The notes beneath the pieces were generated by a model. The model worked only from the letters and a program-made list of their open reading frames with translations. It was not told where the DNA came from and ran no database searches. A DNA stretch of 13,155 nt, from contig CAZPPU010000011.1 in assembly GCA_964588515.1 (NCBI GenBank), positions 1-13,155 on the forward strand, read 5' to 3'. The position numbers and the translations under genes were made by a program. Below are positions 1 through 13,155 of the stretch, piece after piece (position 1 is the first letter of the stretch; each line of letters starts with the position of its first letter). The stretch is from an uncultured Nitrospirota bacterium (lineage in GTDB: Bacteria; Nitrospirota; Thermodesulfovibrionia; Thermodesulfovibrionales; JdFR-86).

Positions 1-129
1 TTTGGTATATCCTTTAGATACCCGAGGTGGAAGCACAATAAGAACAGCAATAAGTAACGGAGCAATTGCACAGAGGAAGAACCACGATACCGGCCCCCGC
101 CCTTTTCTTATAGCTATAATGCTCCCCAT
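1..129 (-). CDS. Possible small membrane protein, partial, running off the window start. ATG on the minus strand at 129..127; an alternative TTG start lies at 168..166.
   Basis: The minus-strand frame is open from 168 to position 1 with no stop. It translates as ...YVALLAIAGIMGSIIAIRKGRGPVSWFFLCAIAPLLIAVLIVLPPRVSKGYTK, i.e. two hydrophobic stretches separated by a positive loop (positive-inside pattern), directly downstream of the prohibitin gene. There is no recognisable family signature. The competing plus-strand ORF 2..190 is its complement and has no recognisable features. Confidence 0.25.
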   Translation of the reverse strand, partial: MGSIIAIRKGRGPVSWFFLCAIAPLLIAVLIVLPPRVSKGYTK

Positions 130-167
130 AATACCTGCAATAGCAAGCAGGGCAACATATCTAAACA

Positions 168-187
168 ATGGAGCGCTCCATTTTTTA
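168..187. terminator. Candidate intrinsic terminator, possibly bidirectional: the perfect 14-nt palindrome ATGGAGCGCTCCAT (168-181) followed by T6 (182-187) on the plus strand.
   Basis: The palindrome is read directly from the sequence. A T-run follows it on the plus strand and an A-run precedes it, with TGTTT after it on the minus strand. It lies 18 nt past the prohibitin stop on the minus strand. The stem is only ~5 bp, so this is a weak call. Confidence 0.25.
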
Positions 188-198
188 TGATTTGTCGT

Positions 199-1056
199 TT
201 ATTTTTTCTGTATCTCGCCTACGCCAATAAACGGCACTGCGCCGCCACCTGTAACCTGCGGGAGGATTCCGTTCCATTTCTCTATAGCCTTGAGATTAGC
301 CTCTACTTTTCTCAGCTCTATAAGCTCTGATGAAATATTTGCCCTCTGTAGCCTCAATGACTCCGCCTCTGCCCTTGCCGATGTAATCTTCTGCTCCGCC
401 TCAATCTTTATCCTATCCAGGTCTCTCTTTGACTTTAGTGCAAGCTGTTCTGCTGTCTGCTTTGCCTCGATAGCCTCCGTAAATACCCGTGAAAAGCTGA
501 ATGAGACAATAGAAAACGCATCAACTGCTATATTATACGGCAGGAGTCTTTCGGCAAGGGCTGCTCTCATCGCCTCGCTTACTAACGGCCTCTTTGTTAT
601 AAGTTCTTCTGCCGAATACTTGGCGGACACGGCTTTCATTACTTCTTGTATTGCAGGGTCTATCACACGCTCCTTGAAGTGTATCCCGAGGGTCTGATAG
701 ACAATATGCGCCTTATCCGGGATGATATGATAGTTAAGCGCAACCGATGAAGTCACATCCTGAAGGTCAGACGAGGCGGATGCGGCATCGGTCATTGCCT
801 TCTGCACCTTGACATCCATTATGGCAACCTTCTGCATTAAAGGCACCCTGAAATGCAGTCCTTCATTCAACACCAGAGGTTGAACAGCGCCAAAATTAAG
901 GACAATCCCTCTTTCACCTGCACCAACCTGAACCCATGGGCTAAAAAACAGGAAAACCACCAGAATTGCTCCAATAATCAGCGCTACCTTCATAGAGCCT
1001 TTCTTCATCGCAGACCGCATTGCATCCTTTGCCCTATAAATATCTTGCTCATCCAT
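199..1056 (-). CDS. SPFH/band-7 family membrane protein (prohibitin-like; HflC/HflK superfamily).
   Basis: 285-aa ORF. It has an N-terminal transmembrane helix (KVALIIGAILVVFLFF) and then a typical SPFH core (GERGIVLNFGAVQPLVLNEGLHFRVPLMQKVAIMDVKVQ...). The C-terminal half is a coiled-coil rich in A/E/K/R, as seen in prohibitins. A Shine-Dalgarno sequence GGGGGAAG sits ~7 nt upstream of the ATG on the minus strand. Confidence 0.85.
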   Translation of the reverse strand: MDEQDIYRAKDAMRSAMKKGSMKVALIIGAILVVFLFFSPWVQVGAGERGIVLNFGAVQPLVLNEGLHFRVPLMQKVAIMDVKVQKAMTDAASASSDLQDVTSSVALNYHIIPDKAHIVYQTLGIHFKERVIDPAIQEVMKAVSAKYSAEELITKRPLVSEAMRAALAERLLPYNIAVDAFSIVSFSFSRVFTEAIEAKQTAEQLALKSKRDLDRIKIEAEQKITSARAEAESLRLQRANISSELIELRKVEANLKAIEKWNGILPQVTGGGAVPFIGVGEIQKK

Positions 1057-1079
1057 TATGCTTCCCCCTTTTGCGATAA

Positions 1080-1115
1080 TGTTTGATATATATTAACACA
1101 TGTTGCCCCTCCACT
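1080..1115 (-). promoter_or_regulatory. AT-rich candidate promoter region for the prohibitin gene.
   Basis: On the minus strand, ...CATGTGTTAATATATATCAAACATTATCGC lies 20-50 nt upstream of the prohibitin RBS and contains TGn/TAATAT-like and TATATA -10 candidates. No clean -35 element was found. Judged by eye only. Confidence 0.2.
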
Positions 1116-1321
1116 GACATTGTCCCTTCCTTTCGTTGAAGTAGGAAGGACTCCGGTTGCCTTATCTTAAGCCGCCTCCTCCTTCCTGTCAAGGGGAAAT
1201 TCCCCACAAGTTCCCCCATTTTTGGGGTTCTTTGTCCGTCATGCCCGAAGCCTGCCCTCGAAGTTTGCAGTCGGGGGTCCTTAGTCGGGCATCCATGTAA
1301 CGCCCCGATCGAAGAAAATGG

Positions 1322-1341
1322 ATTCCCGCCTCCGCGGGAAT
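1322..1341. repeat. Palindromic repeat ATTCCC-GCCTCCGC-GGGAAT, left copy. The wider shared repeat GAAAATGGATTCCCGCCTCCGCGGGAATGACG spans 1314-1345.
   Basis: ATTCCCGC and GCGGGAAT are exact reverse complements, giving an 8-bp stem with a 4-nt loop. Of the 32 positions, 31 match the second copy at 2057-2088. Confidence 0.8.
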
Positions 1342-1449
1342 GACGCAGGGTTAAAAATAATTCCGAAAAGTAACCGGGGTATGGCGCAGAGCCCCCTTAT
1401 GATCCGCCGTCTTCCTCCCATCATTTTAAGGCAGAGGGTGCAGAAGTCC

Positions 1450-1689
1450 TTAGAGGTTCAACCTGATTCTTATAAAGTCCTCTCCGCTTAACCCCGCTCC
1501 TTCGAGGATTCTTCTGAATGTCTTGGGCCTGATGATTTCTCCCGCGTGATAAGAAACAATCGTTTGTTTTCCTGTAAGGGGATGCCTCCATTTCTGATGA
1601 CTTCCGGACTGGCCCGCTTTTTCAAATCCGAGGGATTTTAAAACCCTTATGATTTCATCGGCGGTTACGCGGGGCTGTCTTTGTCCCAT
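1450..1689 (-). CDS. hicA: HicA-family type II toxin (mRNA interferase).
   Basis: 79 aa. It shows the HicA-like pattern ...IIRVLKSLGFEKAGQSGSHQKWRHPLTGKQTIVSYHAGEIIRPKTFRRILEGAGLS (dsRBD-like fold with the conserved GSH...H motif). Its start overlaps the stop of the upstream hicB in an ATGA (position 1689). Confidence 0.85.
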   Translation of the reverse strand: MGQRQPRVTADEIIRVLKSLGFEKAGQSGSHQKWRHPLTGKQTIVSYHAGEIIRPKTFRRILEGAGLSGEDFIRIRLNL

Positions 1690-1883
1690 CAGACAGCGAC
1701 CTCAAAAACCTTTGCATCCTTTGAGAGTCCTTCTTTTGTGGGTCTCAAGTAGAGTTCAATGGCTTCCACGATGTTTTTGCGGGCTTCTTCTTCGGTCTTT
1801 CCGTATGTCACACAGCCGGGCAATTCCGGGCAGTAGGCAACAAAGACATCCTCATCAGGTTCGATTACCACTCTGATTTTCAT
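1689..1883 (-). CDS. hicB: HicB-family antitoxin (UPF0150-type), short form without an obvious DNA-binding domain.
   Basis: 64 aa, MKIRVVIEPDEDVFVAYCPELPGCVTYGKTEEEARKNIVEAIELYL..., the classic HicB N-terminal signature. A strong RBS (AAGGGGGTG) sits ~5 nt before the ATG. It is translationally coupled to hicA through the ATGA overlap. Confidence 0.85.
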   Translation of the reverse strand: MKIRVVIEPDEDVFVAYCPELPGCVTYGKTEEEARKNIVEAIELYLRPTKEGLSKDAKVFEVAV

Positions 1884-2010
1884 AATTCACCCCCTTTTTT
1901 CTTCCTGCATGTCCTAATTCTAACACAAACGGGGGCGCTCTTAAGTTTTCCCTGAAAGCCCCCTACGACCCTCGAAAGCACGAGACCCCCTGAAAAACTC
2001 TCTTTTCGTC

Positions 2011-2033
2011 ATTCTCCGGCTTGACCGGAGAAT
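2011..2033. repeat. Palindrome ATTCTCCGG-CTTGA-CCGGAGAAT preceded by CGTC: a variant copy of the ATTCCC...GGGAAT element in the opposite orientation.
   Basis: 9-bp perfect inverted repeat with a 5-nt loop. The flanking CGTCATTC is the reverse complement of the GAATGACG that follows the other copies, which implies a common ancestral element CGTCATTCCCGC-loop-GCGGGAATGACG. Confidence 0.7.
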
Positions 2034-2064
2034 CCAAGTTTTCTTTAAAACCAAGAGAAAATGG

Positions 2065-2084
2065 ATTCCCGCCTACGCGGGAAT
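2065..2084. repeat. Palindromic repeat ATTCCC-GCCTACGC-GGGAAT, right copy. The wider shared repeat GAAAATGGATTCCCGCCTACGCGGGAATGACG spans 2057-2088.
   Basis: Direct repeat of 1314-1345 with a single mismatch in the loop. Together the two copies bracket hicBA. Confidence 0.8.
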
Positions 2085-2162
2085 GACGAGCAAAAGTCCA
2101 TCCCGGATTCGGGGGGCTCCCTGCTCCTTGAAAACCGCCCATCATATCTGTTAATTTAATCG

Positions 2163-3038
2163 ATGCGGAAGTGTTTGAAATTGGGACTTCCGAAGGGGAG
2201 TCTTCAGGAATCCACGCTCAAGCTTTTCAGGAAGGCCGGCTATCATATCTCGGTCTCCGGCAGGTCGTATTACCCCGTCTTCGACGACCCGGAGATAGAC
2301 TCCATGCTCATCAGGGCGCAGGAGATGGCCGGCTATGTGGAAAAGGGCATACTCGACTGCGGGCTTACGGGCAGGGACTGGGTGCTCGAGCAGGGTGCGG
2401 ATGTCCGCGAGGTGGCGGAGCTCCTATATGCAAAGGAAGGGCTGAACCCGGTCAGGTGGGTGGTGGCCGTGCCCGTGGACTCCAAGATAAAGACCCTCAG
2501 GGACCTCCGGGGCAAGCGCATCGCAACCGAGCTGGTGAGCTTTACGAGGCGCTACCTCAGGGACAAGGGCATCAGGGCCGATGTGGAGTTCTCATGGGGC
2601 GCAACCGAGATAAAGCCGCCTTACCTTGCCGATGCCATCGTTGAGCTTACGGAGACCGGGGCCTCCCTCAGGGCCAACAACCTCCGGATTGTGGAGACGA
2701 TACTTGAGTCCTCCACACGCTTCATCGCAAACAAAAAGGCATGGGCAAACAGGTGGAAGAGACAGAAGATAGAAAACATCGTGATGCTCCTTAAGGGCGC
2801 GCTCGCCGCCGAGGAGAAGGTCGGCCTCAAGATGAATGTGCCGGAGAAATCCCTCAAACTCATATTAGGTCTCCTTCCGGCAATGCACTCCCCAACCATA
2901 TCCACGCTCACCGATAAAGGATGGTTCGACCTCGATGTGGTCATAGACGAGCGGACCGTCAGGGACATGGTCCCCAAGCTCAAAAAGGCCGGGGCAACCG
3001 GCATAGTAGAATACCAGCTCAACAAGGTAATCCCTTAA
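2163..3038 (+). CDS. hisG: ATP phosphoribosyltransferase, long form (catalytic domains plus C-terminal regulatory domain).
   Basis: 291 aa. N-terminus [27 protein letters not shown]... is the HisG hallmark, and [17 protein letters not shown] is the typical PRPP-binding/active-site region. Its length of ~290 aa fits the long form with the C-terminal histidine-binding domain. No strong Shine-Dalgarno sequence was seen. Confidence 0.85.
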
Positions 3039-3054
3039 AGGGGCGCGGAAATCC

Positions 3055-3468
3055 ATGAAATTCTACGAGACGGATGTCCCTGTGAGGTTCTACGAAGTGG
3101 ACTCTTATGGAGTCGTGTGGCACGGCCATTATGCCGGCTATCTCGAAGTCGGAAGGCTCGGGCTTTCGGAAACGCTTGGCCTCTCACTCGATGAGATGAG
3201 GCGCATGGGCGTTTACGCCCCCCTTGTCGAGATGAAGATAAAATATAAATCCTTTGCCCGTTTCGGGGATGTCCTCGTCGTAAAGACCGGCATCCTCCCG
3301 ACGGAGAAGGCATCGCTCACATTCAAATACACCATCGAGAGGAAGTCCGATGCGGCCCTGATTGCGGAGGCGGAGACAACCCATGTCCTTCTCACCCTCG
3401 ACGGCAAGTTGCTCTATCAGGCCCCGGAGGGGCTTAAAAAGAGGCTCGATGATTATTTTGCGGGTTAA
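3055..3468 (+). CDS. Hotdog-fold acyl-CoA thioesterase (4HBT / YbgC-like).
   Basis: 137 aa. VRFYEVDSYGVVWHGHYAGYLEVGR matches the 4HBT active-site region (catalytic D, followed by the HGHY segment). Its size is typical of a single hotdog domain. The start is 17 nt after the hisG stop. Confidence 0.8.
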   Translation: MKFYETDVPVRFYEVDSYGVVWHGHYAGYLEVGRLGLSETLGLSLDEMRRMGVYAPLVEMKIKYKSFARFGDVLVVKTGILPTEKASLTFKYTIERKSDAALIAEAETTHVLLTLDGKLLYQAPEGLKKRLDDYFAG

Positions 3469-3471
3469 GGC

Positions 3472-5841
3472 ATGCCGGTACTGAGGCTGGTCGGCGCCCT
3501 CAGCAGGCTCTCAAGGAGACGGCCAAGGGCGGTCGTGGCCGCAGTCGTCCTTCTCCTTGCAGTCTCCCTCGCAGTTATACTCACATCGCCGCTTGAAAGC
3601 GATGTAACGAGGCTCATCCCGGCCCATGCGGAAAAGACATCCCTTTATCTCAGCCTGATGGAGACATTCGGGGGGATGGAAAAGCTCTACCTCGTTTTTT
3701 CCGCAGACGACATCACGGCCCATATCCCCGAGGTTGAAAAGATAGGCGCGGAACTTTCCTCTTCGGAATTGGTGAAGGATGTGGAGTGGAAAATCTCGCC
3801 TGAAATGCAGAGGTTCATAAGGGAGACCTTTCTTAAGAGGGCGCCCCTCCTTTTAAACAGAGGCGAGATGGAAGACTTCCTCGGAAAACTCTCTGCCCCC
3901 GGCATAGAGCGGGAGCTTCAGAAGACGCAAAAGAGGCTCGCCCTGCCGGGCGGAGGGGCCCTGAGGCTCGACCCCCTGAGCCTCCATGAACTCTTCGGCA
4001 GGCACATCATGCTATCCGAGGTCTCGGTGGACATAGAATCCGGATATTTCGTCACCCCGGACAGGCGGGTGCTCATAATGATGGCGGCCCCGACGGTCTC
4101 CCCGAGGGATATAGCCTCAAACGAAAAGCTGATGAAATATGTGAGGTCGCTTATAGAGAGGCATGCAGGCGGAGGGCTCAAGGTCAGCATAACGGGAAGC
4201 CATGCGATTACATACCACGAGGCGTCCATAATGAAAAGGGAAATCGTAAAGAACATCCTTTCGTCCGCCGTTGGGGTCATGTTGGTCTTCCTTGTGTTTT
4301 TCCGGGGCCTGAGGGGGTTTCTGAATTCCATCGTTCCGGTCCTCGTATCCATAGTGCTTACCACCGGGCTCTTGACCCTGTTTTGGGGCTCCATCACCGA
4401 GGTCTCCGGCGCATTCGGCGCCCTCCTGATAGGGCTCGGCGTGGACTTAGGCATAGTCCTCTATGTGCGGTATGCGATGAGCATGGCAAGGGGCGCGGAG
4501 CGGGACATCGGCGGAAACGGCGCGGCCATGAGCATTACGGTCGGGGTCGTAACGACGGCGGCCACCTTCTACCCCATGGCCATCTCTTCCTTCGGGGGCG
4601 TCAAGGAGATAGGGCTTCTTACCGGCACCGGGATTCTGATTACATGGCTCATGCTCTTCTTGCTTTTCCCCATCCTTGCAAGGAAAGGCAAGGGAGAGCC
4701 CGTGAAGCTGAGGTTCGTAGAGCGCATCTTCGTGTTTTCGCACGAAAGACCCCTGCTCATAGCCGCGGCCGCCATACTCCTGACCGCGCTTTCGGCATAC
4801 TACATAAAAGACATCAAGGTCGAGGAAGATGTCACAACGCTCGGGGCGAAGAAAAACCCGGCAAGGGACACCCTGAAGTCCCTTTCCGAGACATATTTGA
4901 AAAAACACACACTTTACATAACCGGCACGGCGAAAGACCCTTATGATGCATCCGAAGAAAGCGCCCGGATAAAGAAGTCCCTCTCGGGAAAGCTCGATTC
5001 TTCAATCTCCATCTCGGACTTACTGCCGCCGCTTTCAAGACAAAACGAAAACATAAAGGCCCTCGCCTCCGTTGACCCGGATTCCTTCGAAAGGGCGTTC
5101 AGGCAAAAGGCAAATGCACTGGGGTTTGAGCCGGGGGCATTAGACGGATATATAAAAGGGGTAAGGGGGCTTCTTACGGGCAACCGGAAACCCATAACCA
5201 TGGAGGAGCTTGCGCCCCTAAACGATATCATAGAAAGGCTCCTGAGAAAAGAGGGCGCAGGGTACAGGTTCGTCATCACGGGAAGCCTTAAAAACGGCGC
5301 ACCGATGGAACTGCCCGGGGGGCTTCAATGCACAGGGCCGGCCTTTATAAAAAAAGAGCTCCTCGGCCTTCTTAAACACGACGCCCTGCTCATAACGCTC
5401 GTCGGGCTCGTCCTCGTCAATATCATCCTCTTCATAGACTTCAGGCGGCCGTCCTATGTGCTGGTCTCGCAGGTTCCGGTCTTATTATCCACGGTCTGGC
5501 TCTTGGGCCTGATGGGCCTCACCGGGATGGGTCTTAACTTCATGAACGCAATCGTATTCGTCATGCTCTACGGGATAGGCACGGACTACTCCATACACCT
5601 CATCCACCGGTATAAAGAGGACAGGGACATCGGGCACATTGCGGCCCAGACCGGAAATGCGGTCCTCCTTGCCGCCCTCACGACCATAGCGGGCTTCGGC
5701 TCCATGGCCGGCAGTTCCTACAGGGGGCTTTCTTCGATGGGCACGGCCACGGTCATCGGCGTGGCCGTATGTGTTATACTGTCATTGACGCTTATACCGG
5801 CCTTCTTCAGGCTTTATGAAAAAGCTCCTGACGGGAAATGA
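3472..5841 (+). CDS. MMPL / RND-superfamily exporter (COG1033-like; twelve predicted transmembrane helices and two periplasmic loops).
   Basis: 789 aa. Architecture is N-terminal TM, a ~220-aa soluble loop, a five-helix hydrophobic bundle (aa ~260-400), a second ~230-aa loop, and a second bundle (aa ~640-780). This pseudo-twofold layout is characteristic of MmpL/HpnN-type lipid exporters. Only 3 nt separate it from the thioesterase stop. Confidence 0.8.
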   Translation: MPVLRLVGALSRLSRRRPRAVVAAVVLLLAVSLAVILTSPLESDVTRLIPAHAEKTSLYLSLMETFGGMEKLYLVFSADDITAHIPEVEKIGAELSSSELVKDVEWKISPEMQRFIRETFLKRAPLLLNRGEMEDFLGKLSAPGIERELQKTQKRLALPGGGALRLDPLSLHELFGRHIMLSEVSVDIESGYFVTPDRRVLIMMAAPTVSPRDIASNEKLMKYVRSLIERHAGGGLKVSITGSHAITYHEASIMKREIVKNILSSAVGVMLVFLVFFRGLRGFLNSIVPVLVSIVLTTGLLTLFWGSITEVSGAFGALLIGLGVDLGIVLYVRYAMSMARGAERDIGGNGAAMSITVGVVTTAATFYPMAISSFGGVKEIGLLTGTGILITWLMLFLLFPILARKGKGEPVKLRFVERIFVFSHERPLLIAAAAILLTALSAYYIKDIKVEEDVTTLGAKKNPARDTLKSLSETYLKKHTLYITGTAKDPYDASEESARIKKSLSGKLDSSISISDLLPPLSRQNENIKALASVDPDSFERAFRQKANALGFEPGALDGYIKGVRGLLTGNRKPITMEELAPLNDIIERLLRKEGAGYRFVITGSLKNGAPMELPGGLQCTGPAFIKKELLGLLKHDALLITLVGLVLVNIILFIDFRRPSYVLVSQVPVLLSTVWLLGLMGLTGMGLNFMNAIVFVMLYGIGTDYSIHLIHRYKEDRDIGHIAAQTGNAVLLAALTTIAGFGSMAGSSYRGLSSMGTATVIGVAVCVILSLTLIPAFFRLYEKAPDGK

Positions 5842-7459
5842 GGCGGCCGCACAGGGCGCCTACGAGGCGGGCGTCTCCGTTGCCACGGGCTATCCGGGCA
5901 CGCCTTCCACAGAGGTCCTCGAATCCCTAATGAAATCAAGCGGGGTCTATGCGGAATGGTCCTCAAACGAAAAGACCGCGCTTGAGATGGCATCCGGAGC
6001 GTCCTTCGGCGGCAAGAGGGCGCTCGTTTCCATGAAACATGTGGGCCTCAATGCGGCCGCAGACCCCCTTATGACCCTCTCATATACCGGCGTGAGGGCC
6101 GGCCTTGTCATAGTCGTCTCGGACGACCCGGGAATGCACTCTTCACAAAACGAGCAGGACTCGAGGTTCTACGGCCTATTTGCAAAAGTCCCGGTTCTTG
6201 AGCCTTCAGACAGCGAAGAGGCCCTTCTCTTTACAAAACAGGCGTTCTCCATAAGCGAGGAGTTCGACACGCCGGTTATCGTAAGGCTCACGGCCGCGGT
6301 CTCCCATTCGGCAAGCCTCGCAGAGACGGGCGAAAGGGCAGAGCATGAGATTGCGCCATGGAAGGAGCCGGAAAAATATGTGATGCTCCCGCCTTACTGT
6401 AACGAGCGGAGGGCGGGGCTTGAGGAAAGATTAGGGAGACTGAGGGAGTTTTCCGATTCCTTCCCTCATAACAGGGCCGAGTACGGCACAGGCGAAACAG
6501 GCATCGTAACATCCGGCATCTCATACCAGTATGTGAAGGAGGCATTCCCGGAGGCCTCGGTCTTCAAGGTCTCGATGTCATACCCGATGCCGCTTGGGGC
6601 CATAAAGGAGTTCTCCAAAAGGGTAAAACGCCTCTCCGTCATAGAGGAGCTTGAGCATTACATGGAAGACGCAATAAGGGGGGGCACGGCCCCCTCCGAT
6701 TTTGGGGGCACGGCCCCCTCCGACCGGCCACGGGCCGGAGCGGCTAACGGAGCTACAGCCCCCTCGCCGGAAGAGGGCGGCGCATTTTGTGCGGGATGCC
6801 CTTACTTAGGGGTGTTTTATTGCCTCAAACGGACGGATTGCTTTGTATTCGGCGACATAGGCTGTTACACTATGGGCGCAAGGCTCTTCCCCGGGAGCAT
6901 GGACACGACGCTCTGCATGGGCGCGGGGATAAGCCAAGCCGTGGGCTTTCTCAAGGCAAGGCCCGAAGGCAAGGCCATAGCGGTCATAGGGGATTCGACA
7001 TTCTTTCATTCGGGAATCCCCGCGGTCGTAAACGCACTCCACCACAAGACGCCCCTGTCCCTGATACTCTTGGACAACGGCGTTACGGCCATGACCGGCG
7101 GGCAGTCCTATGCAGGCAAGGGAATAAACCTCGAGGGTCTCCTTCACGCCCTCGGACTCAAAAATGTCTCCGAGGTCAACCCCTACGATATAAAAAACAT
7201 AAGCGTTGCCATCCATAAAAGCCTCGATGGGGCTTTGAACTCCGCTCTGCCATCGGCTATAATTATAAGAGGCAGGTGCGCGGTAAAGGAGCGTCCCAAA
7301 AACATGGCCGTGGACCCGGCCCTGTGTAACGGGTGCATGGAATGCCTTGAGCTTAAATGCCCGGCCCTCGTAAGGGAAAACGGGGCGGTTGCCGTCCGGG
7401 CAGGATGCACCGGCTGTGGGCTTTGCGCCTCGGTATGCCGAAGAGATGCGGTTGGATAA
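5816..7459 (+). CDS. iorA: Indolepyruvate:ferredoxin oxidoreductase alpha subunit (TPP-binding, with a C-terminal 2x[4Fe-4S] ferredoxin domain).
   Basis: 547 aa. N-terminus MKKLLTGNEAAAQGAYEAGVSVATGYPGTPSTEV is the canonical IorA start. The CAGCPY...GDIGCYTMG TPP region is present, and the C-terminus carries CNGCMECLELKCP and CTGCGLCASVC ferredoxin motifs. It overlaps the MMPL stop by 26 nt. It contains an unusual low-complexity insert GGTAPSDFGGTAPSD (see findings). Confidence 0.85.
   Translation: MKKLLTGNEAAAQGAYEAGVSVATGYPGTPSTEVLESLMKSSGVYAEWSSNEKTALEMASGASFGGKRALVSMKHVGLNAAADPLMTLSYTGVRAGLVIVVSDDPGMHSSQNEQDSRFYGLFAKVPVLEPSDSEEALLFTKQAFSISEEFDTPVIVRLTAAVSHSASLAETGERAEHEIAPWKEPEKYVMLPPYCNERRAGLEERLGRLREFSDSFPHNRAEYGTGETGIVTSGISYQYVKEAFPEASVFKVSMSYPMPLGAIKEFSKRVKRLSVIEELEHYMEDAIRGGTAPSDFGGTAPSDRPRAGAANGATAPSPEEGGAFCAGCPYLGVFYCLKRTDCFVFGDIGCYTMGARLFPGSMDTTLCMGAGISQAVGFLKARPEGKAIAVIGDSTFFHSGIPAVVNALHHKTPLSLILLDNGVTAMTGGQSYAGKGINLEGLLHALGLKNVSEVNPYDIKNISVAIHKSLDGALNSALPSAIIIRGRCAVKERPKNMAVDPALCNGCMECLELKCPALVRENGAVAVRAGCTGCGLCASVCRRDAVG
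6683..6730. repeat. Tandem 24-nt direct repeat (GGCACGGCCCCCTCCGATTTTGGG then GGCACGGCCCCCTCCGACCGGCCA) inside iorA. It encodes GTAPSDFG-GTAPSD.
   Basis: Read directly: the 17-nt GGCACGGCCCCCTCCGA occurs at 6683-6699 and again at 6707-6723. The same architecture recurs at 7896-7940. Confidence 0.8.
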
Positions 7460-7982
7460 AGTAACGAACATAGTCTTTACGGGCCTCGGAGGCCGCGGGA
7501 TAATCACGGCATCGGATATCTGCGCGCTCTCGGCAGTTTACTCCGGTGCGGATGTGAAGAAGTCCGCGCTCAAGGGGATTGCCCAGAGGGGCGGGCTCGT
7601 CGTAAGTCATGTGAGGTTCGGCCCGAAAGTCCGCAGTCCCAGAGTAGAGCCGGGCGCCGCGGACTTCGCCGTAAGCATCGGCGGAAGGGAAAAGGCCGTC
7701 CCGTTCCTCGCAGAAAGCGGGATCCTAATAGATATGCCCGACGATATGATAAAAAAATACGGCCGTTTTGCGAACATCTACGCCCTCGGCATCCTGTCCC
7801 GGCATCTGCCTTTCGGCGCGGACGCATGGCTTCTTGCAATAAAGGAGAGGTTCCTCGACGGCGTGTGCTCGGAAAACATAAGAATATTCAGTGAGGGGGC
7901 TGCGGGCCCCCGCGATTTTGGGTCCGCGAGCCCCCGCGCTATAGGAATCAATGAAAGTCTGCTGTCTCATACCCGCATATAA
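7446..7982 (+). CDS. iorB: Indolepyruvate:ferredoxin oxidoreductase beta subunit. The likely start is the ATG at 7446; the six-frame ORF opens at 7389.
   Basis: MRLDKVTNIVFTGLGGRGIITASDICA... is the typical IorB/POR-gamma-like N-terminus. AAGAGA lies ~6 nt upstream. It overlaps the iorA stop by 14 nt. The C-terminal tail ...EGAAGPRDFGSASPRAIGINESLLSHTRI looks like an acquired extension that overlaps the next gene. Confidence 0.75.
   Translation: MRLDKVTNIVFTGLGGRGIITASDICALSAVYSGADVKKSALKGIAQRGGLVVSHVRFGPKVRSPRVEPGAADFAVSIGGREKAVPFLAESGILIDMPDDMIKKYGRFANIYALGILSRHLPFGADAWLLAIKERFLDGVCSENIRIFSEGAAGPRDFGSASPRAIGINESLLSHTRI
7896..7940. repeat. Second copy of the GC-rich ~44-nt element: GGGGGCTGCGGGCCCCCGCGATTTTGGGTCCGCGAGCCCCCGCGCT.
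   Basis: It aligns with 6683-6726: GC-rich unit, then GATTTTGGG, then a second GC-rich unit. It sits at the iorB 3' end, where it encodes AAGPRDFGSASPRA. Confidence 0.7.
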
Positions 7983-8622
7983 CGAAGAACGCACCATTGG
8001 GGCGGTCATCCGGGGGTGCAGGCCGCACCTTGCGGACATAGTCGTAGTGGACGACGGCTCGACCGACGGGACCCCGGAGGCGGCAAGGGGCGCAGGCGCT
8101 CATCTTCTCAGGCACGAAAAAAACTCCGGCAAGGGGATGGCCCTCAAGACGGGCTTTTCCTTTGCGCTCAAGGAAGGCTTCGACGCCGTCCTCTCCATAG
8201 ACGCAGACGGCCAGCACGACCCGGAGGAGATACCGAAATTTTTAGATGCATACAAGGCAGGCGGTGGTATAATTATAGGGGCAAGGCTTTGGGACAGGAA
8301 GGAGATACCGCTTCAGAGGTACATCTCCAACATGGTCGGGGTCTTCTTCATATCCCTTGCCGCGGGGCAGAAGATACCGGATACGCAGTCGGGCTTTAGG
8401 ATCTACGGAAAGGAGGTGCTCGAGGACATAGAGTTCGGGTCCAAGGGGTTTGAGGCCGAGACCGAAATCCTGATAAAGGCGGGAAGGGCGGGCTTCAGCA
8501 TAGGCGCCATCCCGGTAAGGGCTATATACCCCGAAAACCACAACAGCCATTTCAGGGCAGTGAGGGATTTTACGAGAATAAGTCTTACGGTCTTAAAAAC
8601 CATATATGGAGGTGTGAGATGA
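7951..8622 (+). CDS. Family-2 glycosyltransferase, short soluble form (DPM1 / polyprenyl-phosphate sugar transferase-like).
   Basis: 223 aa. N-terminus MKVCCLIPAYNEERTIGAVIRG is the GT2 signature, followed by VVVDDGSTDGT and a DAD (DxD-type) motif. There is no C-terminal transmembrane segment. The start overlaps the iorB tail by 32 nt, and the stop overlaps the next start in an ATGA. Confidence 0.8.
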   Translation: MKVCCLIPAYNEERTIGAVIRGCRPHLADIVVVDDGSTDGTPEAARGAGAHLLRHEKNSGKGMALKTGFSFALKEGFDAVLSIDADGQHDPEEIPKFLDAYKAGGGIIIGARLWDRKEIPLQRYISNMVGVFFISLAAGQKIPDTQSGFRIYGKEVLEDIEFGSKGFEAETEILIKAGRAGFSIGAIPVRAIYPENHNSHFRAVRDFTRISLTVLKTIYGGVR

Positions 8623-9032
8623 AAAAAATTCTCGCCGTTTCATTGGTCGTCTTACTCGTTTCGGTCGCCTTTGCGCAGGTCGAAAAGCCCGTTCCCGTAG
8701 AGGATATCATCAAGAAGGTAGACGAGCTAAGGGGCATGAAGGTGGAATTCACCCAGTACAACAAGGATATGAAAGGCAAGATTACCGAGGGAAGCGGAAA
8801 GGTAGTGAAAATCATGCCGCCGATGCCCTTCGGAAAGATGAACAGGGTTGCCGTCCTTTCGCCCGGAAGCAATCCCCCGGAGGGCTACAATGTCATCCTC
8901 TTTACCGCCCAAAACCCGATGATGGAACTCAACATAGGGCAGGTGATAAAGTTCAGGGGCTCATTTGACAGGGCCTCGTCGAAGTGGGCAGTAGTGGATG
9001 TCACCGGCGCCTACGAGGCGGAAAAGAAATAA
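8619..9032 (+). CDS. Small secreted/periplasmic protein of unknown function (paralog A).
   Basis: 137 aa. It has a clear Sec signal peptide (MKKILAVSLVVLLVSVAFAQ) and a strong RBS (GGAGGTG) ~8 nt upstream. It shares a ...G-[KT]-VV-[KD]...Y-[ND]-V-[IV]-L...GQ-[VT]-I-[KR]-F-[RT]-G pattern with the downstream ORF. Confidence 0.7.
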   Translation: MKKILAVSLVVLLVSVAFAQVEKPVPVEDIIKKVDELRGMKVEFTQYNKDMKGKITEGSGKVVKIMPPMPFGKMNRVAVLSPGSNPPEGYNVILFTAQNPMMELNIGQVIKFRGSFDRASSKWAVVDVTGAYEAEKK

Positions 9033-9048
9033 GCGCTTGGCAGGCAAG

Positions 9049-9444
9049 ATGAGATGTACAGCCTTTTCTCTGGCCCTGCTCCTGCTCTTCTTGGGCGCAG
9101 CCCTTGCCCTCACATTCGAGGAGGTCGAGGACAACCTCGCCCCGGATAAGAACACGAAGATATATGCCCGGAAATACTGGGAGAAGATTAAGGGCGAAGA
9201 GGTCTCATGGTCCGGCACGGTCGTAGATGTGAAAGGCGGCTTCAGGGACAGGTACAAGGTCTATGTGAAGATCGGGAAGCCGGCAAAGAAAAAATACGAT
9301 GTCGTCCTCGTAGTCTATGACGACGAGGGCGTTACGAGGCTTAAGAAAGGGCAGACGATAAGGTTTACGGGAACGCTCCGGGACTACAGCGACCTCTTGG
9401 GAAGGTTCAGCATCGTGCTTGACGATGCGACCCTGCTCCGGTGA
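9049..9444 (+). CDS. Small secreted/periplasmic protein of unknown function (paralog B).
   Basis: The six-frame ORF opens at 8998, but the ATG at 9049 yields MRCTAFSLALLLLFLGAALA, a typical signal peptide. The mature part (SGTVVDVKGG...YDVVLVVYDDEGVTRLKKGQTIRFTGTLRD) parallels paralog A and may be an OB-fold-like small beta domain. Confidence 0.65.
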   Translation: MRCTAFSLALLLLFLGAALALTFEEVEDNLAPDKNTKIYARKYWEKIKGEEVSWSGTVVDVKGGFRDRYKVYVKIGKPAKKKYDVVLVVYDDEGVTRLKKGQTIRFTGTLRDYSDLLGRFSIVLDDATLLR

Positions 9445-10748
9445 GAGGCCATCTCATCTCGCCCTGCAGGGACGAGGCCATATGGAGAAAGAGGCGGGGG
9501 ACATTCACACTGCCTCAGATGTCCCTCGCCATACTTTCCGCCCTCACCCCGCCCGATATAGAGATGAAGGTCACGGACGAACTCGTCGAGGATATAGATT
9601 TCTCCTATCCGGCCGATGCCGTTGCGCTATCCGTCAACACGACAAACAGCCTCAGGGCCTATGAGGTCGCCCGCATCTTCAGGGAAAAAGGGGCCAAGGT
9701 CTTAATGGGCGGCATACACCCCTCGATGCTCCCCGATGAGGCGGCCCTTCACGCAGACGCCATAGTCGTCGGTGAGGCCGAGGGGGTATGGCCTGCGCTG
9801 ATTGAAGACCTCAGGGGAGGCGGGCTCAAGCCCCGTTACGAGTCTTCGCACCCCGACCCCTCCGAGATACCCTTCCCCAAGTGGGACGCCCTCGACGCCA
9901 AAAGGTATTTCGTCCCCCGGACATTTCAGGTATCGAGGGGCTGTCCCTACGGGTGCAGTTTCTGCAGTTCCACAAGGTTCTTCGGGATGAAATACCGCAT
10001 GAGGCCCATAGGCGCGGCGATCGAAGAATTAAAAAGCTATCCCCGGAGGTTCGTCGTCTTTGTGGACGACAACATAGTCGGAAACCCGGACTACTCGAAA
10101 GAGCTTTTCACGGCGATGAGGCCGCTCAAAAAAAGATGGGTCGCCCAATCCTCTATAGACATCGCAAAGGACGAAACCCTCCTTCGCCTTGCAAGCGAAA
10201 GCGGATGCGCCGGCCTCCTCATCGGCTTGGAGAGCATCCGCTACGGGAACAAAAAGGATGTCAAGAAACTGAAGGCGCGCTCCGAATACGAAGAGACGAT
10301 AAGGAGGATAAAACGGGCGGGCATCGGGGTGCACGGCTCCTTTATCTTCGGCTTCGATGACGACGACCCTGAGGTATTCGACTCCACAGTGGACTTCGTG
10401 ATGAAAAACAGGCTCGAGGCCGCCAATTACTGCAAGCTCACGCCCTATCCGGGCACAAGGCTCTTCGAGGCGTTTCAGAAGGAAGGCAGGCTCATGCACA
10501 CGGACTGGTCGAAATACGACAGGTATAACATCGTCTTTAGGCCGAAGAACTTAGGCATAGACGAACTCAGGGAGAAGACCGACGAGGCATACCGGAAGAC
10601 CTACTCCATCCCCTCCATCCTCAGGCGCTGTCCCCCGGCGCTCAAGAGCATCCCCTATTACTTTGCAATCAACCTGAGCTACAGGGCAGGCGCAAGAAGG
10701 GTCTCGAATTTAAAATCCGGGCCCGCTAAGACCCCGCCTTCCGCTTGA
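9441..10748 (+). CDS. B12-binding-domain radical SAM enzyme (class B radical SAM; HpnJ/BchE-like architecture with a DUF4070-like C-terminus).
   Basis: 435 aa. The N-terminal cobalamin-binding-like domain reads ...GAKVLMGGIHPSMLPDEAALHADAIVVGEAEGVWPALIEDL. The radical SAM cluster motif is SRGCPYGCSFCS (CxxxCxxC). The C-terminus carries the TPYPGTRLF motif common to this class. The start is a GTG at 9441 that overlaps the upstream TGA stop (gTGA); the ATG at 9516 (MSLAILS...) is an alternative. The 3' end overlaps the convergent gene by 23 nt. Confidence 0.8.
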   Translation: MRGHLISPCRDEAIWRKRRGTFTLPQMSLAILSALTPPDIEMKVTDELVEDIDFSYPADAVALSVNTTNSLRAYEVARIFREKGAKVLMGGIHPSMLPDEAALHADAIVVGEAEGVWPALIEDLRGGGLKPRYESSHPDPSEIPFPKWDALDAKRYFVPRTFQVSRGCPYGCSFCSSTRFFGMKYRMRPIGAAIEELKSYPRRFVVFVDDNIVGNPDYSKELFTAMRPLKKRWVAQSSIDIAKDETLLRLASESGCAGLLIGLESIRYGNKKDVKKLKARSEYEETIRRIKRAGIGVHGSFIFGFDDDDPEVFDSTVDFVMKNRLEAANYCKLTPYPGTRLFEAFQKEGRLMHTDWSKYDRYNIVFRPKNLGIDELREKTDEAYRKTYSIPSILRRCPPALKSIPYYFAINLSYRAGARRVSNLKSGPAKTPPSA

Positions 10749-12081
10749 GCTCCTGCCATGCCTTCTCGGCCAGCCCGGCCCACTCACCGGCATATTTGTC
10801 TATCTCGGCATGGAAGTCCTTTACGATGTTTTCTGCGCCCGCATGGGTGAGATGCACTCCGGGCATCCTGCATACCTCCCTGTAGAACTCCGGGCGGTCT
10901 ATTATCATGCAGGGTCTTAGGAGGTTTTCGTTTTTACTCTGGTTTTCCCTGATCTTTTTAAACATGGGGGATGTAACGGCCTCCCTCAGGCTCACATCCT
11001 TTATGTTGTGCATCGAAAAGTGACAGAAGACGCAGGGCTCCACATCCCCTTTGGAGTTTATATGGAAGTATTTCCTTCCGCCTGCGATACAGCCGCCCAC
11101 TATAGGCCCGTCGTTCCAGAAATCTCCGAAGAGCATCTCCTTCGTCTCTCTGAAATACGCTATCCTCCGCCTGAGGAGGTCCCTCTGCTCGGGCGTGGGC
11201 ACGAGCTCCCAGTTGGGCTCCCTTCCAACGGGCGTATAAAGGAAATACCAGCCTATGGTGGCGCCCTGAGCCATGTAATGGTCTACGAAGGCATCGGAGG
11301 TGACAAGCCCGGCGTTGTGCCTCGTCACGGTATTGGAATAGGCGAAGAGCACGCCCGCCTCCTTTAGGAGCCCCATGGCCCTTATGACCTTTTCGTAATG
11401 GCCCTTGCCCCTTCTTCTGTCCGTCTCCTCCTCGAAGCCCTCGACGCTTATTGCCGGAAGGACATTGCCCAGTCCGGCAAGTCTCCCCACCAACTTTTCA
11501 TCCAAAAGCCCGCCGTGGGTGTAGACATGGAAGGACATATCGCTGTGCTTTTTGTATATGTCGAGCAAGTCGCCTCTGAAGAAAGGCTCGCCCCCGGAGA
11601 TTACTATGAAATAAACCCCCATCTCCTTGGCCTCGTTAAGCACCCTGTCGATGACCTCGAAAGACAGGTCTTCGTCCTTCTTGTACATACCGGCATAACA
11701 GCCGAAACAGTTGAGGTTGCACTTCATCGAGGGGCTTATTACGAAAAGCCCCGGCGGATAGAACCCTCCTTCCCGCTCGGAGAAGAGCTTCCTCTTGGTA
11801 GAGCCGACGAGGAGCTGGTTTATGACGAAGCTTCTAATAATGGCCTTCTTATGGTTTGGACTCGTATTTTTCAGGACCTTCATCGCCACCTTGAGGCTCG
11901 GATGCCCGGACTTCCACATCCGCCTTATCCTTCTAATGGCCCTCTTATAATGTTCCCTCGTCGTGGCCTTCTCCGCGATTCCCAGATATGAGATGAGGGC
12001 CTTCGGACTGCTCTTGGACATGAGGTAGACCATCCAGTAAAGGAACTTGGAGAGGAGTTTGGGCTTGAGCGTCTTCAGCAT
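10726..12081 (-). CDS. Radical SAM enzyme with a C-terminal Cys-rich auxiliary-cluster region (SPASM/twitch-like) and a ~110-aa basic N-terminal extension.
   Basis: 451 aa. Radical SAM motif MKCNLNCFGCYAG and the SAM-binding motif ISGGEPFF are present. C-terminal cysteines occur in GGCIAGGRKYFHINSKGDVEPCVFCHF and LLRPCMIIDRPEFYREVCRMPG. The N-terminal 110 aa are helical and Lys/Arg-rich, with no recognisable family match. The ATG lies 1 nt after the stop of the upstream B12-rSAM on the minus strand. Confidence 0.75.
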   Translation of the reverse strand: MLKTLKPKLLSKFLYWMVYLMSKSSPKALISYLGIAEKATTREHYKRAIRRIRRMWKSGHPSLKVAMKVLKNTSPNHKKAIIRSFVINQLLVGSTKRKLFSEREGGFYPPGLFVISPSMKCNLNCFGCYAGMYKKDEDLSFEVIDRVLNEAKEMGVYFIVISGGEPFFRGDLLDIYKKHSDMSFHVYTHGGLLDEKLVGRLAGLGNVLPAISVEGFEEETDRRRGKGHYEKVIRAMGLLKEAGVLFAYSNTVTRHNAGLVTSDAFVDHYMAQGATIGWYFLYTPVGREPNWELVPTPEQRDLLRRRIAYFRETKEMLFGDFWNDGPIVGGCIAGGRKYFHINSKGDVEPCVFCHFSMHNIKDVSLREAVTSPMFKKIRENQSKNENLLRPCMIIDRPEFYREVCRMPGVHLTHAGAENIVKDFHAEIDKYAGEWAGLAEKAWQELKRKAGS

Positions 12082-12082
12082 C

Positions 12083-13155
12083 TCAAAAGACCTCCTCTTT
12101 CATGACCGAATTAATCCACCGCTCCTCTTTATAGTTCAGCAGGTCTTTCTTGGACATCGGAAAGCAGGCAAACGATTTTATCAAAGGCCCGGAGTCCGTC
12201 TCTTCATATTTTTCCGAAGAGTAAAACTCCTTCCACGCAGTAAGATAACCCTCGTGGAGTTCTTCCGGCGTCATGCCTTTCGGAACGAATACGACCGAGG
12301 ATGTCGAGTATTTCGAGAAATCCCCCGTAATAAGCCTCCCCTCGATGCTGAGCCTCTCGTAGAGCCTGCTCTTGGGGTACGGGGTGAGGATGTGGAACTC
12401 GGCCTCTTCTATATTGTTTCTCTTTGCAAACCTCACCGTCTTTTCGAATATGTCCGGCCTGTCGTGGTCGAAACCGAAGACGAAGGAGGCTATGACCTTA
12501 ATCCCCATGTCGCGGATTCTCCGGATATAGTCCCCGGCCCTGCTTACCTGCACGCCGTCTATGACCTCATTCAAGCTCGCAGAGACCCATGGGCTCAAGT
12601 CTATATACATCGCCCAGCAGTTGCTTTCCTTGAGGAGCGCAAGGAATTCCCGGTCGCCGGCAGACGAAAGAGGGGCAAGGCCGACCCACCGTTTCCCGGC
12701 CCCGGCCATGCCCTTCAGGAACTTCCTCACCCTGCGTTTTGCGAGATTGAGGTTGTCGTTTACGACGAATATGCAGTCCTCGAGCTCTCCGAGGCCGGCA
12801 AGGAGTTTATCCGTGTCGAACATCCTGAATTCGGTCCCGAATGTCTGGGGCACGGAGCACATATCGCAGTTTACCGGGCACCCCCTCGACACCTGTATCG
12901 AATTCATCGGGATGTATATCCCCGACCTGAAAATACTCCACCGCGGGAGGGGATACTCCTCGGGAGGGGAAGTGCACCTGTAGACCTTTTCAAGACGCCC
13001 CCTCTTGAAATCCTCCATGACCCCGGGCCATGTGCCTTCCGCCTCGCCTATGACGATGGCGTCCGCATTCGCCGAGGCCTCTTCGGGCATAAGGGACACA
13101 TGCACGCCGCCGAGCACTACGGGGATCCCCCTTCGCCTGAAGGCGCCCGATATCT
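12083..13155 (-). CDS. Second B12-binding-domain radical SAM enzyme, paralog of 9441-10748. Its N-terminus continues beyond the window end.
   Basis: The radical SAM motif is SRGCPVNCDMCS. NADAIVIGEAEGTWPGVMEDF and TPYPKSRLY parallel the plus-strand paralog. The reading frame stays open to position 13155 (...ISGAFRRRGIPVVLGGVHVSLMP), so the true start lies upstream, outside the window. Confidence 0.75.
   Translation of the reverse strand, partial: ISGAFRRRGIPVVLGGVHVSLMPEEASANADAIVIGEAEGTWPGVMEDFKRGRLEKVYRCTSPPEEYPLPRWSIFRSGIYIPMNSIQVSRGCPVNCDMCSVPQTFGTEFRMFDTDKLLAGLGELEDCIFVVNDNLNLAKRRVRKFLKGMAGAGKRWVGLAPLSSAGDREFLALLKESNCWAMYIDLSPWVSASLNEVIDGVQVSRAGDYIRRIRDMGIKVIASFVFGFDHDRPDIFEKTVRFAKRNNIEEAEFHILTPYPKSRLYERLSIEGRLITGDFSKYSTSSVVFVPKGMTPEELHEGYLTAWKEFYSSEKYEETDSGPLIKSFACFPMSKKDLLNYKEERWINSVMKEEVF

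Follow-up and report, generated by a model that had tools for sequence, protein, structure and literature searches.

Three characterized radical S-adenosylmethionine (SAM) enzymes, Tes, Gms and Mss, form C-C bonds between lipid tails. Gms, the archaeal lipid cross-linking enzyme of the SPASM/twitch type, is defined by an N-terminal extension of 100 amino acids (aa) that forms a hydrophobic lipid pocket (PMC11214058), and its gene clusters with B12 radical SAM genes whose products act on the tails, Gmm by methylation and Grs by cyclisation (PMC11214058; PMC13459092). Unusual envelope lipids are also made by dedicated gene clusters, such as the aryl-polyene (APE) genes of Xenorhabdus, which yield a GalNAc-phosphoglycerol lipid (bioRxiv 10.1101/2020.12.19.423268). 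Here we compare with these systems a block of three radical SAM genes and their neighbours (positions 7951-13155) in a stretch of 13,155 nucleotides (nt) from an uncultured Nitrospirota bacterium (assembly GCA_964588515.1, contig CAZPPU010000011.1, positions 1 to 13,155 of the forward strand), referred to below as the window. Two of the three genes encode paralogous enzymes with a B12-binding domain (B12A and B12B), and the third encodes a twitch or partial-SPASM enzyme (hereafter twitch). We consider it likely that, in a Nitrospirota host (a Thermodesulfovibrionia-like member of the phylum), the block comprises the export and head-group end and three of the six radical SAM genes of a specialised-lipid cluster of ~20 kb with a tail-tailoring mechanism. 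Most likely, the cluster builds, tailors and exports an unusual envelope glycolipid and modifies neither a peptide nor a hopanoid.

The accessory genes were compared by direct BLASTP with the APE cluster of E. coli CFT073. The short soluble family 2 glycosyltransferase (GT2) of the window (7951..8622, + strand, 223 aa; Glycos_transf_2, 5.2e-26) matched the N-terminal half of ApeJ (residues 8-233, 30% identity, E 9e-29), and an LpxL-type acyltransferase (LPLAT), encoded past the window end in a close relative, matched the C-terminal half (residues 313-550, E 2e-11); this matching to the ApeJ halves held for 39/39 GT2 and 27/27 LPLAT orthologues. The hotdog (4HBT/YbgC-type) acyl thioesterase that opens the + strand operon (3055..3468; Pfam 4HBT_2, 4.6e-14; TIGR00051, 70.4 bits against a cutoff of 68.7) resembles ApeK (32% identity, E 1.5e-12), which was also the top match for 17/17 orthologues in related loci. 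The MMPL/RND (HAE3-type) lipid exporter (3472..5841, + strand; Pfam MMPL, 4.5e-34) resembles ApeM (E 6e-9 over 481 aa). Beyond the window, the acyl carrier protein (ACP), the ketoreductase and the dehydratase of the cluster correspond to ApeE (48% identity), ApeQ (41%) and ApeP, respectively, and the ketosynthases found in Desulfobacterota to ApeO/ApeR. Thus, the APE attachment and export module (ApeJ, ApeK, ApeM, ApeE, ApeQ and ApeP) is represented, and this homology indicates a cluster in which radical SAM tailoring enzymes accompany an APE-type machinery for anchoring and exporting a lipid. One suggestion of the first-pass annotation had been a lipid or glycolipid pathway, and both the homology to the APE module and the fatty-acyl genes among the neighbours support it.

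According to the authors who described the roles of ApeJ, ApeD, ApeK, ApeL and ApeM in Xenorhabdus, ApeJ has two activities, glycosylation of the anchor and acylation of the sugar by the ACP-bound chain, and export of the lipid to the outer membrane falls to ApeM and LolA/LolB-like proteins (bioRxiv 10.1101/2020.12.19.423268). The cluster studied here shares this logic, that is, a special acyl chain on a dedicated ACP, a sugar-phosphoglycerol anchor and outer-membrane export. Different from APE clusters, however, it has no polyene-forming core, as no query matched ApeC, ApeH or ApeB; the Nitrospirota version is, in its visible parts, without the aryl-activating ligase (ApeH), the chain-length factor (ApeC), the methyltransferase (ApeB) and a ketosynthase. 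Moreover, ApeJ is split here with the twitch gene between its halves, up to six radical SAM enzymes are encoded where APE clusters have none, and predicted OB-fold exported proteins occur besides, or in place of, ApeL and ApeN.

The window holds about half of the locus. Its positions 9049-13155 are 93.7% identical at the DNA level to a second contig (L001), which encodes the nearest twitch homologue (95% identity) and continues past the window end with a complete B12B, the LPLAT, an ApeP/FabZ-like dehydratase, the ACP, a FabG-like ketoreductase and FabD. These are followed by a TIGR04072-like B12 enzyme, a BchE/HpnJ-like B12 enzyme, a DUF2062 protein and a third DUF4070-type B12 enzyme. Against TIGR04072 ('lipid biosynthesis B12-binding/radical SAM protein'; cutoff 360 bits), the B12 enzyme at 3587-4909 of this contig scored 357 bits. 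In total, the radical SAM enzymes of the cluster number up to six, namely up to five with a B12 domain plus twitch, and three of them lie in the window. It unites the ACP, FabD, the ketoreductase and the dehydratase with the thioesterase, the GT2, the LPLAT, the MMPL protein and the predicted OB-fold exported proteins, and relatives additionally encode LolA/LolB-like proteins.

The gene set recurs well beyond this lineage. More than 7,000 twitch homologues align over their full length; at E<=1e-30, an exhaustive search recovered 606 proteins representing clusters of 50% identity, and in a collection with a single genome for each GTDB species, at least 592 stretches were seen to encode a twitch relative. 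A search seeded with a Zixibacteria protein central to the family gave only metagenome-assembled genomes, and among the homologues so listed there was no named member from Thermotogae or Firmicutes. The family occurs in Nitrospirota, Desulfobacterota (including Geobacter and Syntrophaceae), Zixibacteria, Omnitrophota, Planctomycetota, Actinomycetota, Atribacterota, Synergistota, Aerophobetes and candidate phyla. When all open reading frames within 6 kb of twitch were clustered across 78 non-redundant loci, a GT2 was present in 39 of them (immediately upstream of twitch in 28), a B12 radical SAM enzyme in 38, the LPLAT in 27 (immediately downstream of twitch in 17) and a DUF3473 (XrtA-type) polysaccharide deacetylase, which accompanies the GT2, in 24. 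FabD was found in 19 of the 78 loci, the 4HBT thioesterase in 17, the ketoreductase in 16, the ACP in at least 15, a ketosynthase in 14 (in Desulfobacterota versions only) and the MMPL protein in 10. Three loci of Thermodesulfovibrionia type (L004, L008 and L090) show the hotdog protein, the MMPL protein, the GT2, small exported protein(s) and B12A, followed by converging twitch, B12B and LPLAT genes, so that the co-occurrence which the first-pass annotation had proposed to look for, namely of the GT2, the secreted proteins and the MMPL protein with all three radical SAM genes, was found in independent relatives, as was that of the thioesterase. The compact Nitrospirota core of L090 and L004 repeats the gene set of the window, and in both the MMPL gene adjoins the GT2 gene. 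Across phyla the adjacency of GT2 and twitch is conserved, and both Nitrospirota and Desulfobacterota, Geobacter among the latter, share the core gene set. The gene block is real and more than a chance juxtaposition.

Clusters of related content have been seen before under another name. 'Ladderane' clusters, represented by kuste3335-3352 of Kuenenia, and their synteny in Desulfotalea and Geobacter were noted in 2009 (PMC2649909, PMC4790861); antiSMASH-type 'ladderane' clusters have since been reported in many non-anammox anaerobes with no known function (PMC9902471), and a 2026 review describes the step of ladderane synthesis that involves radical SAM chemistry as yet unknown (PMC13459092). 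In the literature on Geobacter, a search for the present cluster yielded only Rattray et al. 2009. The ladderane-like clusters share with ours the ACP, FabG, FabZ, radical SAM enzymes, a glycosyltransferase and a deacetylase-like gene. With respect to the NCBIfam family TIGR04072, one B12 enzyme of the extended cluster lies near the cutoff, whereas B12A and B12B are not members (56.6 and 45.3 bits, respectively, against 360). The Nitrospirota version differs further in having neither a phytoene-desaturase-like gene nor a divergent FabF, and because the host is not an anammox bacterium, ladderanes are not expected. The cluster thus belongs to an already noticed but functionally unsolved kind of APE-/ladderane-type lipid cluster with radical SAM enzymes, of which it is a distinct Nitrospirota variant.

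In the window, the three radical SAM genes close the block. B12A (9441..10748, + strand, 435 aa, with a DUF4070-type C-terminus) and the twitch gene (10726..12081, - strand, 451 aa) converge tail-to-tail with an overlap of 23 nt, and B12B, also on the - strand, extends from 12083 to beyond 13155, its 5' end lying outside the window. The B12B stop codon TGA (12085-12083) is separated by one base from the twitch ATG at 12081, and a GAGGAGG Shine-Dalgarno sequence for twitch sits inside the 3' end of B12B; judged from this junction sequence, twitch is translationally coupled to B12B. B12A matched the B12-binding (3.4e-10; PF02310, 40.2 bits against a cutoff of 32.1) and Radical_SAM (1.9e-16; PF04055, 61 bits) profiles and, weakly, DUF4070. 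The window-truncated B12B matched DUF4070 (1.1e-7), with B12-binding (1.8e-6, 28.2 bits) and Radical_SAM (28.7 bits) scores both just under the cutoffs; it carries a CPVNCDMC motif, and its full-length orthologue on L001 (428 aa) has both domains. By these domain assignments, B12A and B12B belong to the class B (B12-binding domain) radical SAM enzymes, which are defined by a B12-binding Rossmann domain at the N-terminus ahead of a CxxxCxxC radical SAM barrel. They are 39% identical over 366 aa (E 5e-90), B12A is 44% identical to B12_426, and together with the last DUF4070-type B12 enzyme of L001 they constitute one paralogous subfamily (38-44% identity); B12A orthologues at >=59% identity come nearly all from Nitrospirota/Thermodesulfovibrionales. 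B12A fell below every curated NCBIfam cutoff, its scores being 95 bits for BchE (the top match; cutoff 481), 75 for HpnJ (578) and 57 for TIGR04072 (360). The twitch enzyme likewise reached no curated NCBIfam cutoff (at most ~82 bits, with the mycofactocin maturase and NirJ2 models). In these respects the first-pass annotation was accurate: the GT2, the two signal-peptide proteins, the MMPL exporter and the hotdog thioesterase were recovered from the open reading frames and profile searches at the positions it gave, the paralogous B12 pair is convergent, the junction of B12B and twitch is 1 nt, and none of the three radical SAM genes that it had called uncharacterised reaches a curated equivalog cutoff.

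The twitch enzyme matched Radical_SAM (3.1e-23) and, above the cutoff of 21.5 bits, SPASM PF13186 (33.8 bits). Its CxxxCxxC motif (C121/C125/C128) follows an N-terminal extension of 110 aa with a pI of 11.0, and the cysteines invariant across the family are 121, 125, 128, 331, 350 and 391; C353 varies, being F, T or V in some members. The SPASM motif proper has seven cysteines and holds two auxiliary clusters. Despite the PF13186 match above cutoff, only C331, C350 and C391 are invariant among the auxiliary cysteines here, suggesting a twitch-like or partial SPASM rather than a full one, and this cysteine pattern suggests that the enzyme likely carries one auxiliary Fe-S cluster. The Cys-rich auxiliary C-terminus described by the first-pass annotation stands as a SPASM-domain match and is probably not a full SPASM domain. 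The basic N-terminal extension of about 110 aa to which it had also drawn attention is indeed there: it is amphipathic and helical, conserved throughout the family, and contains some residues invariant across phyla. In an AlphaFold2 model of the enzyme (mean confidence, pLDDT, of 87.6), residues 1-102 form five helices and no strands. The suggested peptide-binding fold of the RRE type was thus not borne out, since an all-helical five-helix bundle without beta strands is not RRE-like. A maturase of ribosomally synthesized and post-translationally modified peptides (RiPPs) containing an RRE, which would have a winged helix with a three-stranded beta sheet at the N-terminus, was rejected as an identity for twitch.

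Compared with the lipid-tail enzymes, twitch resembles Gms, whose extension is assigned to COG4001, in having an N-terminal extension on the ~100-aa scale and B12 radical SAM partner genes. Gms differs in being a close homologue of AhbD (36% identity, 7e-79) with isoprenoid tetraethers as substrates; identity with Gms was rejected, as twitch of the window scored 79.7 bits and its Aerophobetes homologue 49.7 bits against the AhbD model TIGR04545 (cutoff 500). In Tes, as in twitch, some 110 aa precede the radical SAM motif, which begins at about residue 112-121, and both are candidates for lipid C-C coupling. Identity with Tes (GDGT-MAS; PDB 7TOL/7TOM), for which the literature uses full-length similarity at E<=1e-40 and which has two auxiliary clusters and a rubredoxin domain, was rejected on both sequence and structure. 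With Mss (T. ethanolicus WP_129545148.1, T. maritima Tmari_0825), twitch shares a restriction to anaerobes. The published Mss homologues come from Nitrospirae, delta-proteobacteria, Actinobacteria, Synergistetes, Atribacterota, FCB, PVC and candidate phyla, a distribution closely matched by that of the twitch family, and published Aerophobetes or Omnitrophota clusters pair mss with grs homologues. Mss alone suffices in E. coli, in keeping with the occurrence of twitch as a single gene described below. Mss acts on ordinary phospholipid tails, whereas twitch in the window lies inside a dedicated cluster with an ACP, a GT2 and an exporter. By analogy, twitch probably acts on lipid tails like Mss, Gms or Tes.

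Outside the large clusters, twitch was found in several simpler settings. A metagenome-assembled genome (MAG) of Aerophobetes (L081, 9747-14426) contains, between valS and nudix/pta, a bare trio in which twitch is joined by two B12 enzymes, one of DUF4070 type and one of HpnJ/BchE type; this trio probably corresponds to the 'mss + grs homologue' arrangement that the Gms preprint mentions for Aerophobetes. In Syntrophaceae-type loci (L028, L032, L044, L046, L048 and related ones), split BcrAD_BadFG/DUF2229/HGD-D genes (PF01869/PF09989/PF06050) lie just downstream of twitch; the same domain set was reported for the ether-lipid enzyme Ger in its source paper. In Actinomycetota MAGs (L067, L073, L075, L077, L083, L084 and L086), twitch is located within a thrS / infC-rplT-pheST housekeeping array, between thrS and infC, with no lipid genes near it. 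Lone homologues are encoded on enterobacterial IncF plasmids, at 7956-9257 of L091 (NZ_CP077819.1, K. pneumoniae pFF1023_1) and at 2254-3633 of L092 (NZ_CP117576.1, E. albertii pEA5_1); they are full-length including the N-terminal extension (34-36% identity, E 1e-74 to 1e-78), with IS66 and IS3 in the same regions. Occurrence in a bare trio with B12 enzymes, beside Ger-type domain genes, and alone among housekeeping genes or on plasmids agrees with an enzyme whose substrates are ordinary membrane lipids. In addition, an ATP-grasp gene stands upstream of twitch in 16 loci.

Based on these comparisons, we propose the following scheme for the cluster. The acyl chain would be carried by the ApeE-like ACP, while the GT2 would attach an (amino)sugar to an acceptor of glycerophospholipid or polyprenyl-phosphate type, and the LPLAT would transfer the ACP-bound chain to the sugar head group. 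The B12-domain enzymes may methylate or cyclise unactivated carbons of the chain, as the archaeal Gmm and Grs do. The twitch enzyme would bind the lipid through its N-terminal helical domain and could use its putative auxiliary Fe-S cluster for C-C bond formation or another C-H functionalisation on the lipid tails, as Mss, Gms and Tes do. Finally, the MMPL pump and the periplasmic proteins would bring the finished lipid to the outer membrane.

Several points weigh against this scheme. No ketosynthase is encoded in the visible parts of the Nitrospirota loci (L001, L004 and L090), no member of the twitch family has a known product or activity, and the likeness between twitch and Mss is drawn from phyletic distribution and gene context. 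That B12A and B12B bind cobalamin and transfer methyl groups is an assumption based on their family, and the closest PDB relative, AprD4, is a class B member that does not methylate. Furthermore, the gene order GT2-twitch-LPLAT would fit a reaction on the head group equally well. Twitch could then modify the sugar rather than the tails, between the GT2 and acyl-transfer steps, by oxidation, epimerisation, decarboxylation or ring contraction (compare BtrN, DesII, BlsE, Cds and HpnJ). The position of its gene directly between the homologues of the ApeJ halves speaks for such a role, as does the sugar decarboxylase BlsE being its top PDB sequence match (2.6e-10), with the sugar-acting twitch enzymes BtrN and DesII among its structural neighbours. 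All these PDB matches, however, span the generic core only, the basic amphipathic N-terminal helices resemble the lipid-pocket extension of Gms, and half of the loci have no GT2 nearby, twitch often standing alone (in Actinomycetota and on plasmids) or with B12 genes only. We regard action on the head group as unlikely, though the gene order makes it a serious rival. It is quite improbable that the GT2 and the deacetylase of relatives merely make a polyprenyl-phosphate amino-sugar donor (compare ArnC/ArnD, PpgS and FlmF2/NaxD) and that the radical SAM genes are simply adjacent to them. The top curated matches of the GT2 are indeed polyprenyl-phosphate sugar transferases (AglJ, 109 bits, and PpgS, 103 bits, both under cutoff, and also ArnC), the XrtA/DUF3473 deacetylase recurs as counted above, and one Desulfobacterota locus (L087) adjoins lipid A and Bam genes. 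Mere adjacency nevertheless sits poorly with operon junctions that overlap or leave 1-4 nt and with a GT2-twitch neighbourhood kept across phyla; no GT-C transferase is present, and ACP, ketoreductase, dehydratase, thioesterase and MMPL genes accompany the pair.

The two remaining explanations had both been raised by the first-pass annotation. In favour of a hopanoid-tailoring locus of the HpnN/HpnI/HpnJ type, HpnN was the top curated match of the MMPL protein (218 bits), and the B12 enzymes matched HpnJ (75 bits) and HpnR (62 bits) weakly. These scores are far under the cutoffs (752, 578 and 650, respectively), neither a squalene-hopene cyclase (shc) nor any hpn gene was found in the window, L001, L004 or L090, and the partner genes encode enzymes of fatty-acyl metabolism with homology to the APE module; the echo of hopanoid loci is thus superficial and such a pathway very improbable. 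In favour of a RiPP or protein-modifying system, the solved structures closest to twitch are the peptide maturases SkfB, SuiB and anSME. But the N-terminal extension is helical, without the beta strands of an RRE, the non-coding space between the overlapping genes is too small for a precursor-peptide gene, no protease or peptide transporter is present, and the neighbours are lipid enzymes (ACP, FabD, ketoreductase, dehydratase, acyltransferase and thioesterase). We give modification of a peptide or protein hardly any credence.

Genome mining routinely labels clusters of this kind 'ladderane' in Desulfobacterota, Nitrospirota, Omnitrophota and other anaerobes, with no product assigned (PMC9902471, PMC2649909), and the sources of the branched tetraether lipids used as palaeoclimate proxies, as well as the enzymes that methylate and cyclise them, are still sought. 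A bolder and rather doubtful conjecture is that the non-anammox 'ladderane-like' clusters encode one unrecognised class of outer-membrane glycolipid, whose tails would be multiply methylated or cyclised by the B12 enzymes and joined tail-to-tail or cross-linked by an Mss-like enzyme encoded between the split ApeJ halves. If true, the cluster would supply the missing methylases and ring-formers for bacterial branched or 'overly branched' membrane-spanning lipids, of the branched glycerol dialkyl glycerol tetraether (brGDGT) type, and would link research on APE lipids, ladderane clusters and Mss. The split ApeJ with twitch between its halves, the DUF4070-type B12 paralogue family and the dedicated exporter provide a concrete and testable gene set, and the same core occurs in Geobacter, a genus with genetically tractable members.

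The remaining genes of the + strand operon, as delineated by the listing of open reading frames and profile searches, lie between those already described, in the tightly packed order thioesterase, MMPL, IorA, IorB, GT2, two exported proteins and B12A. The IorA-like alpha subunit of an indolepyruvate:ferredoxin oxidoreductase (5816..7459, + strand), whose gene overlaps the end of the MMPL gene, scored 550 bits with TIGR03336 (IOR_alpha), under the cutoff of 651, and has thiamine pyrophosphate (TPP) and 4Fe-4S domains; it also contains a low-complexity insert (GGTAPSDFGGTAPSD...). The IorB-like subunit (7389..7982, + strand; NF005322, 110 bits; Pfam POR, 9e-17) overlaps the GT2 start and probably begins in fact near 7446. 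The place of both genes between the MMPL and GT2 genes suggests, by operon position alone, that IorA is part of the pathway, and one may speculate that IorAB provides either a starter acyl-CoA or, for the radical SAM enzymes, reduced ferredoxin. The iorAB genes are not found at the same position in L004 and L090, being inserted in the operon only in this lineage; in the Desulfobacterota locus L087, a TPP_enzyme_C and POR pair follows the twitch gene. In the same locus (1-9929), a ketosynthase, an ACP, two polyketide-cyclase-like genes, an FMN reductase and two phytoene-desaturase-like genes precede the module of twitch, LPLAT and B12 genes, after which comes the bamA-skp-lpxD-fabZ-lpxA array of outer-membrane biogenesis.

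The first exported protein (8619..9032, + strand) has a Sec signal peptide with an AFA-Q cleavage site, and the second (8998..9444, + strand), exported or membrane-anchored, gave a weak match to DUF4131 (ComEC N-terminal OB; 2.9e-5). The two had been called paralogues. Their pairwise similarity is weak (22% identity, E 0.036), but the relationship, though distant, becomes convincing once orthologues are aligned, both sharing KGYNxxL...GQxIxFxG motifs, and the tandem pair is kept in Thermodesulfovibrio (L008). With moderate confidence, an AlphaFold2 model built from a two-sequence alignment predicts that both are OB-folds, and a LolA-like fold was rejected for them. Relatives encode an extra protein of 250-265 aa after twitch, with weak LolA/LolB/DUF4292 matches, and a DUF4410 lipoprotein, both of which are absent from the window.

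The operon is preceded by hisG, a hicAB pair and an SPFH gene, none of them related to it. Rfam and tRNA scans of the window gave no matches, and promoter and terminator scans gave counts not clearly above the expectation from shuffled sequence. The hicA/hicB-like toxin-antitoxin pair (79 aa and 64 aa; window 1450-1883, - strand) occupies an otherwise 'empty' gap (1056-2163) and is flanked by two copies of a 33-nt element (1313-1345 and 2056-2088), each of which contains an 8-bp GC-rich hairpin (ATTCCCGC...GCGGGAAT) that is terminator-like when read on the - strand.

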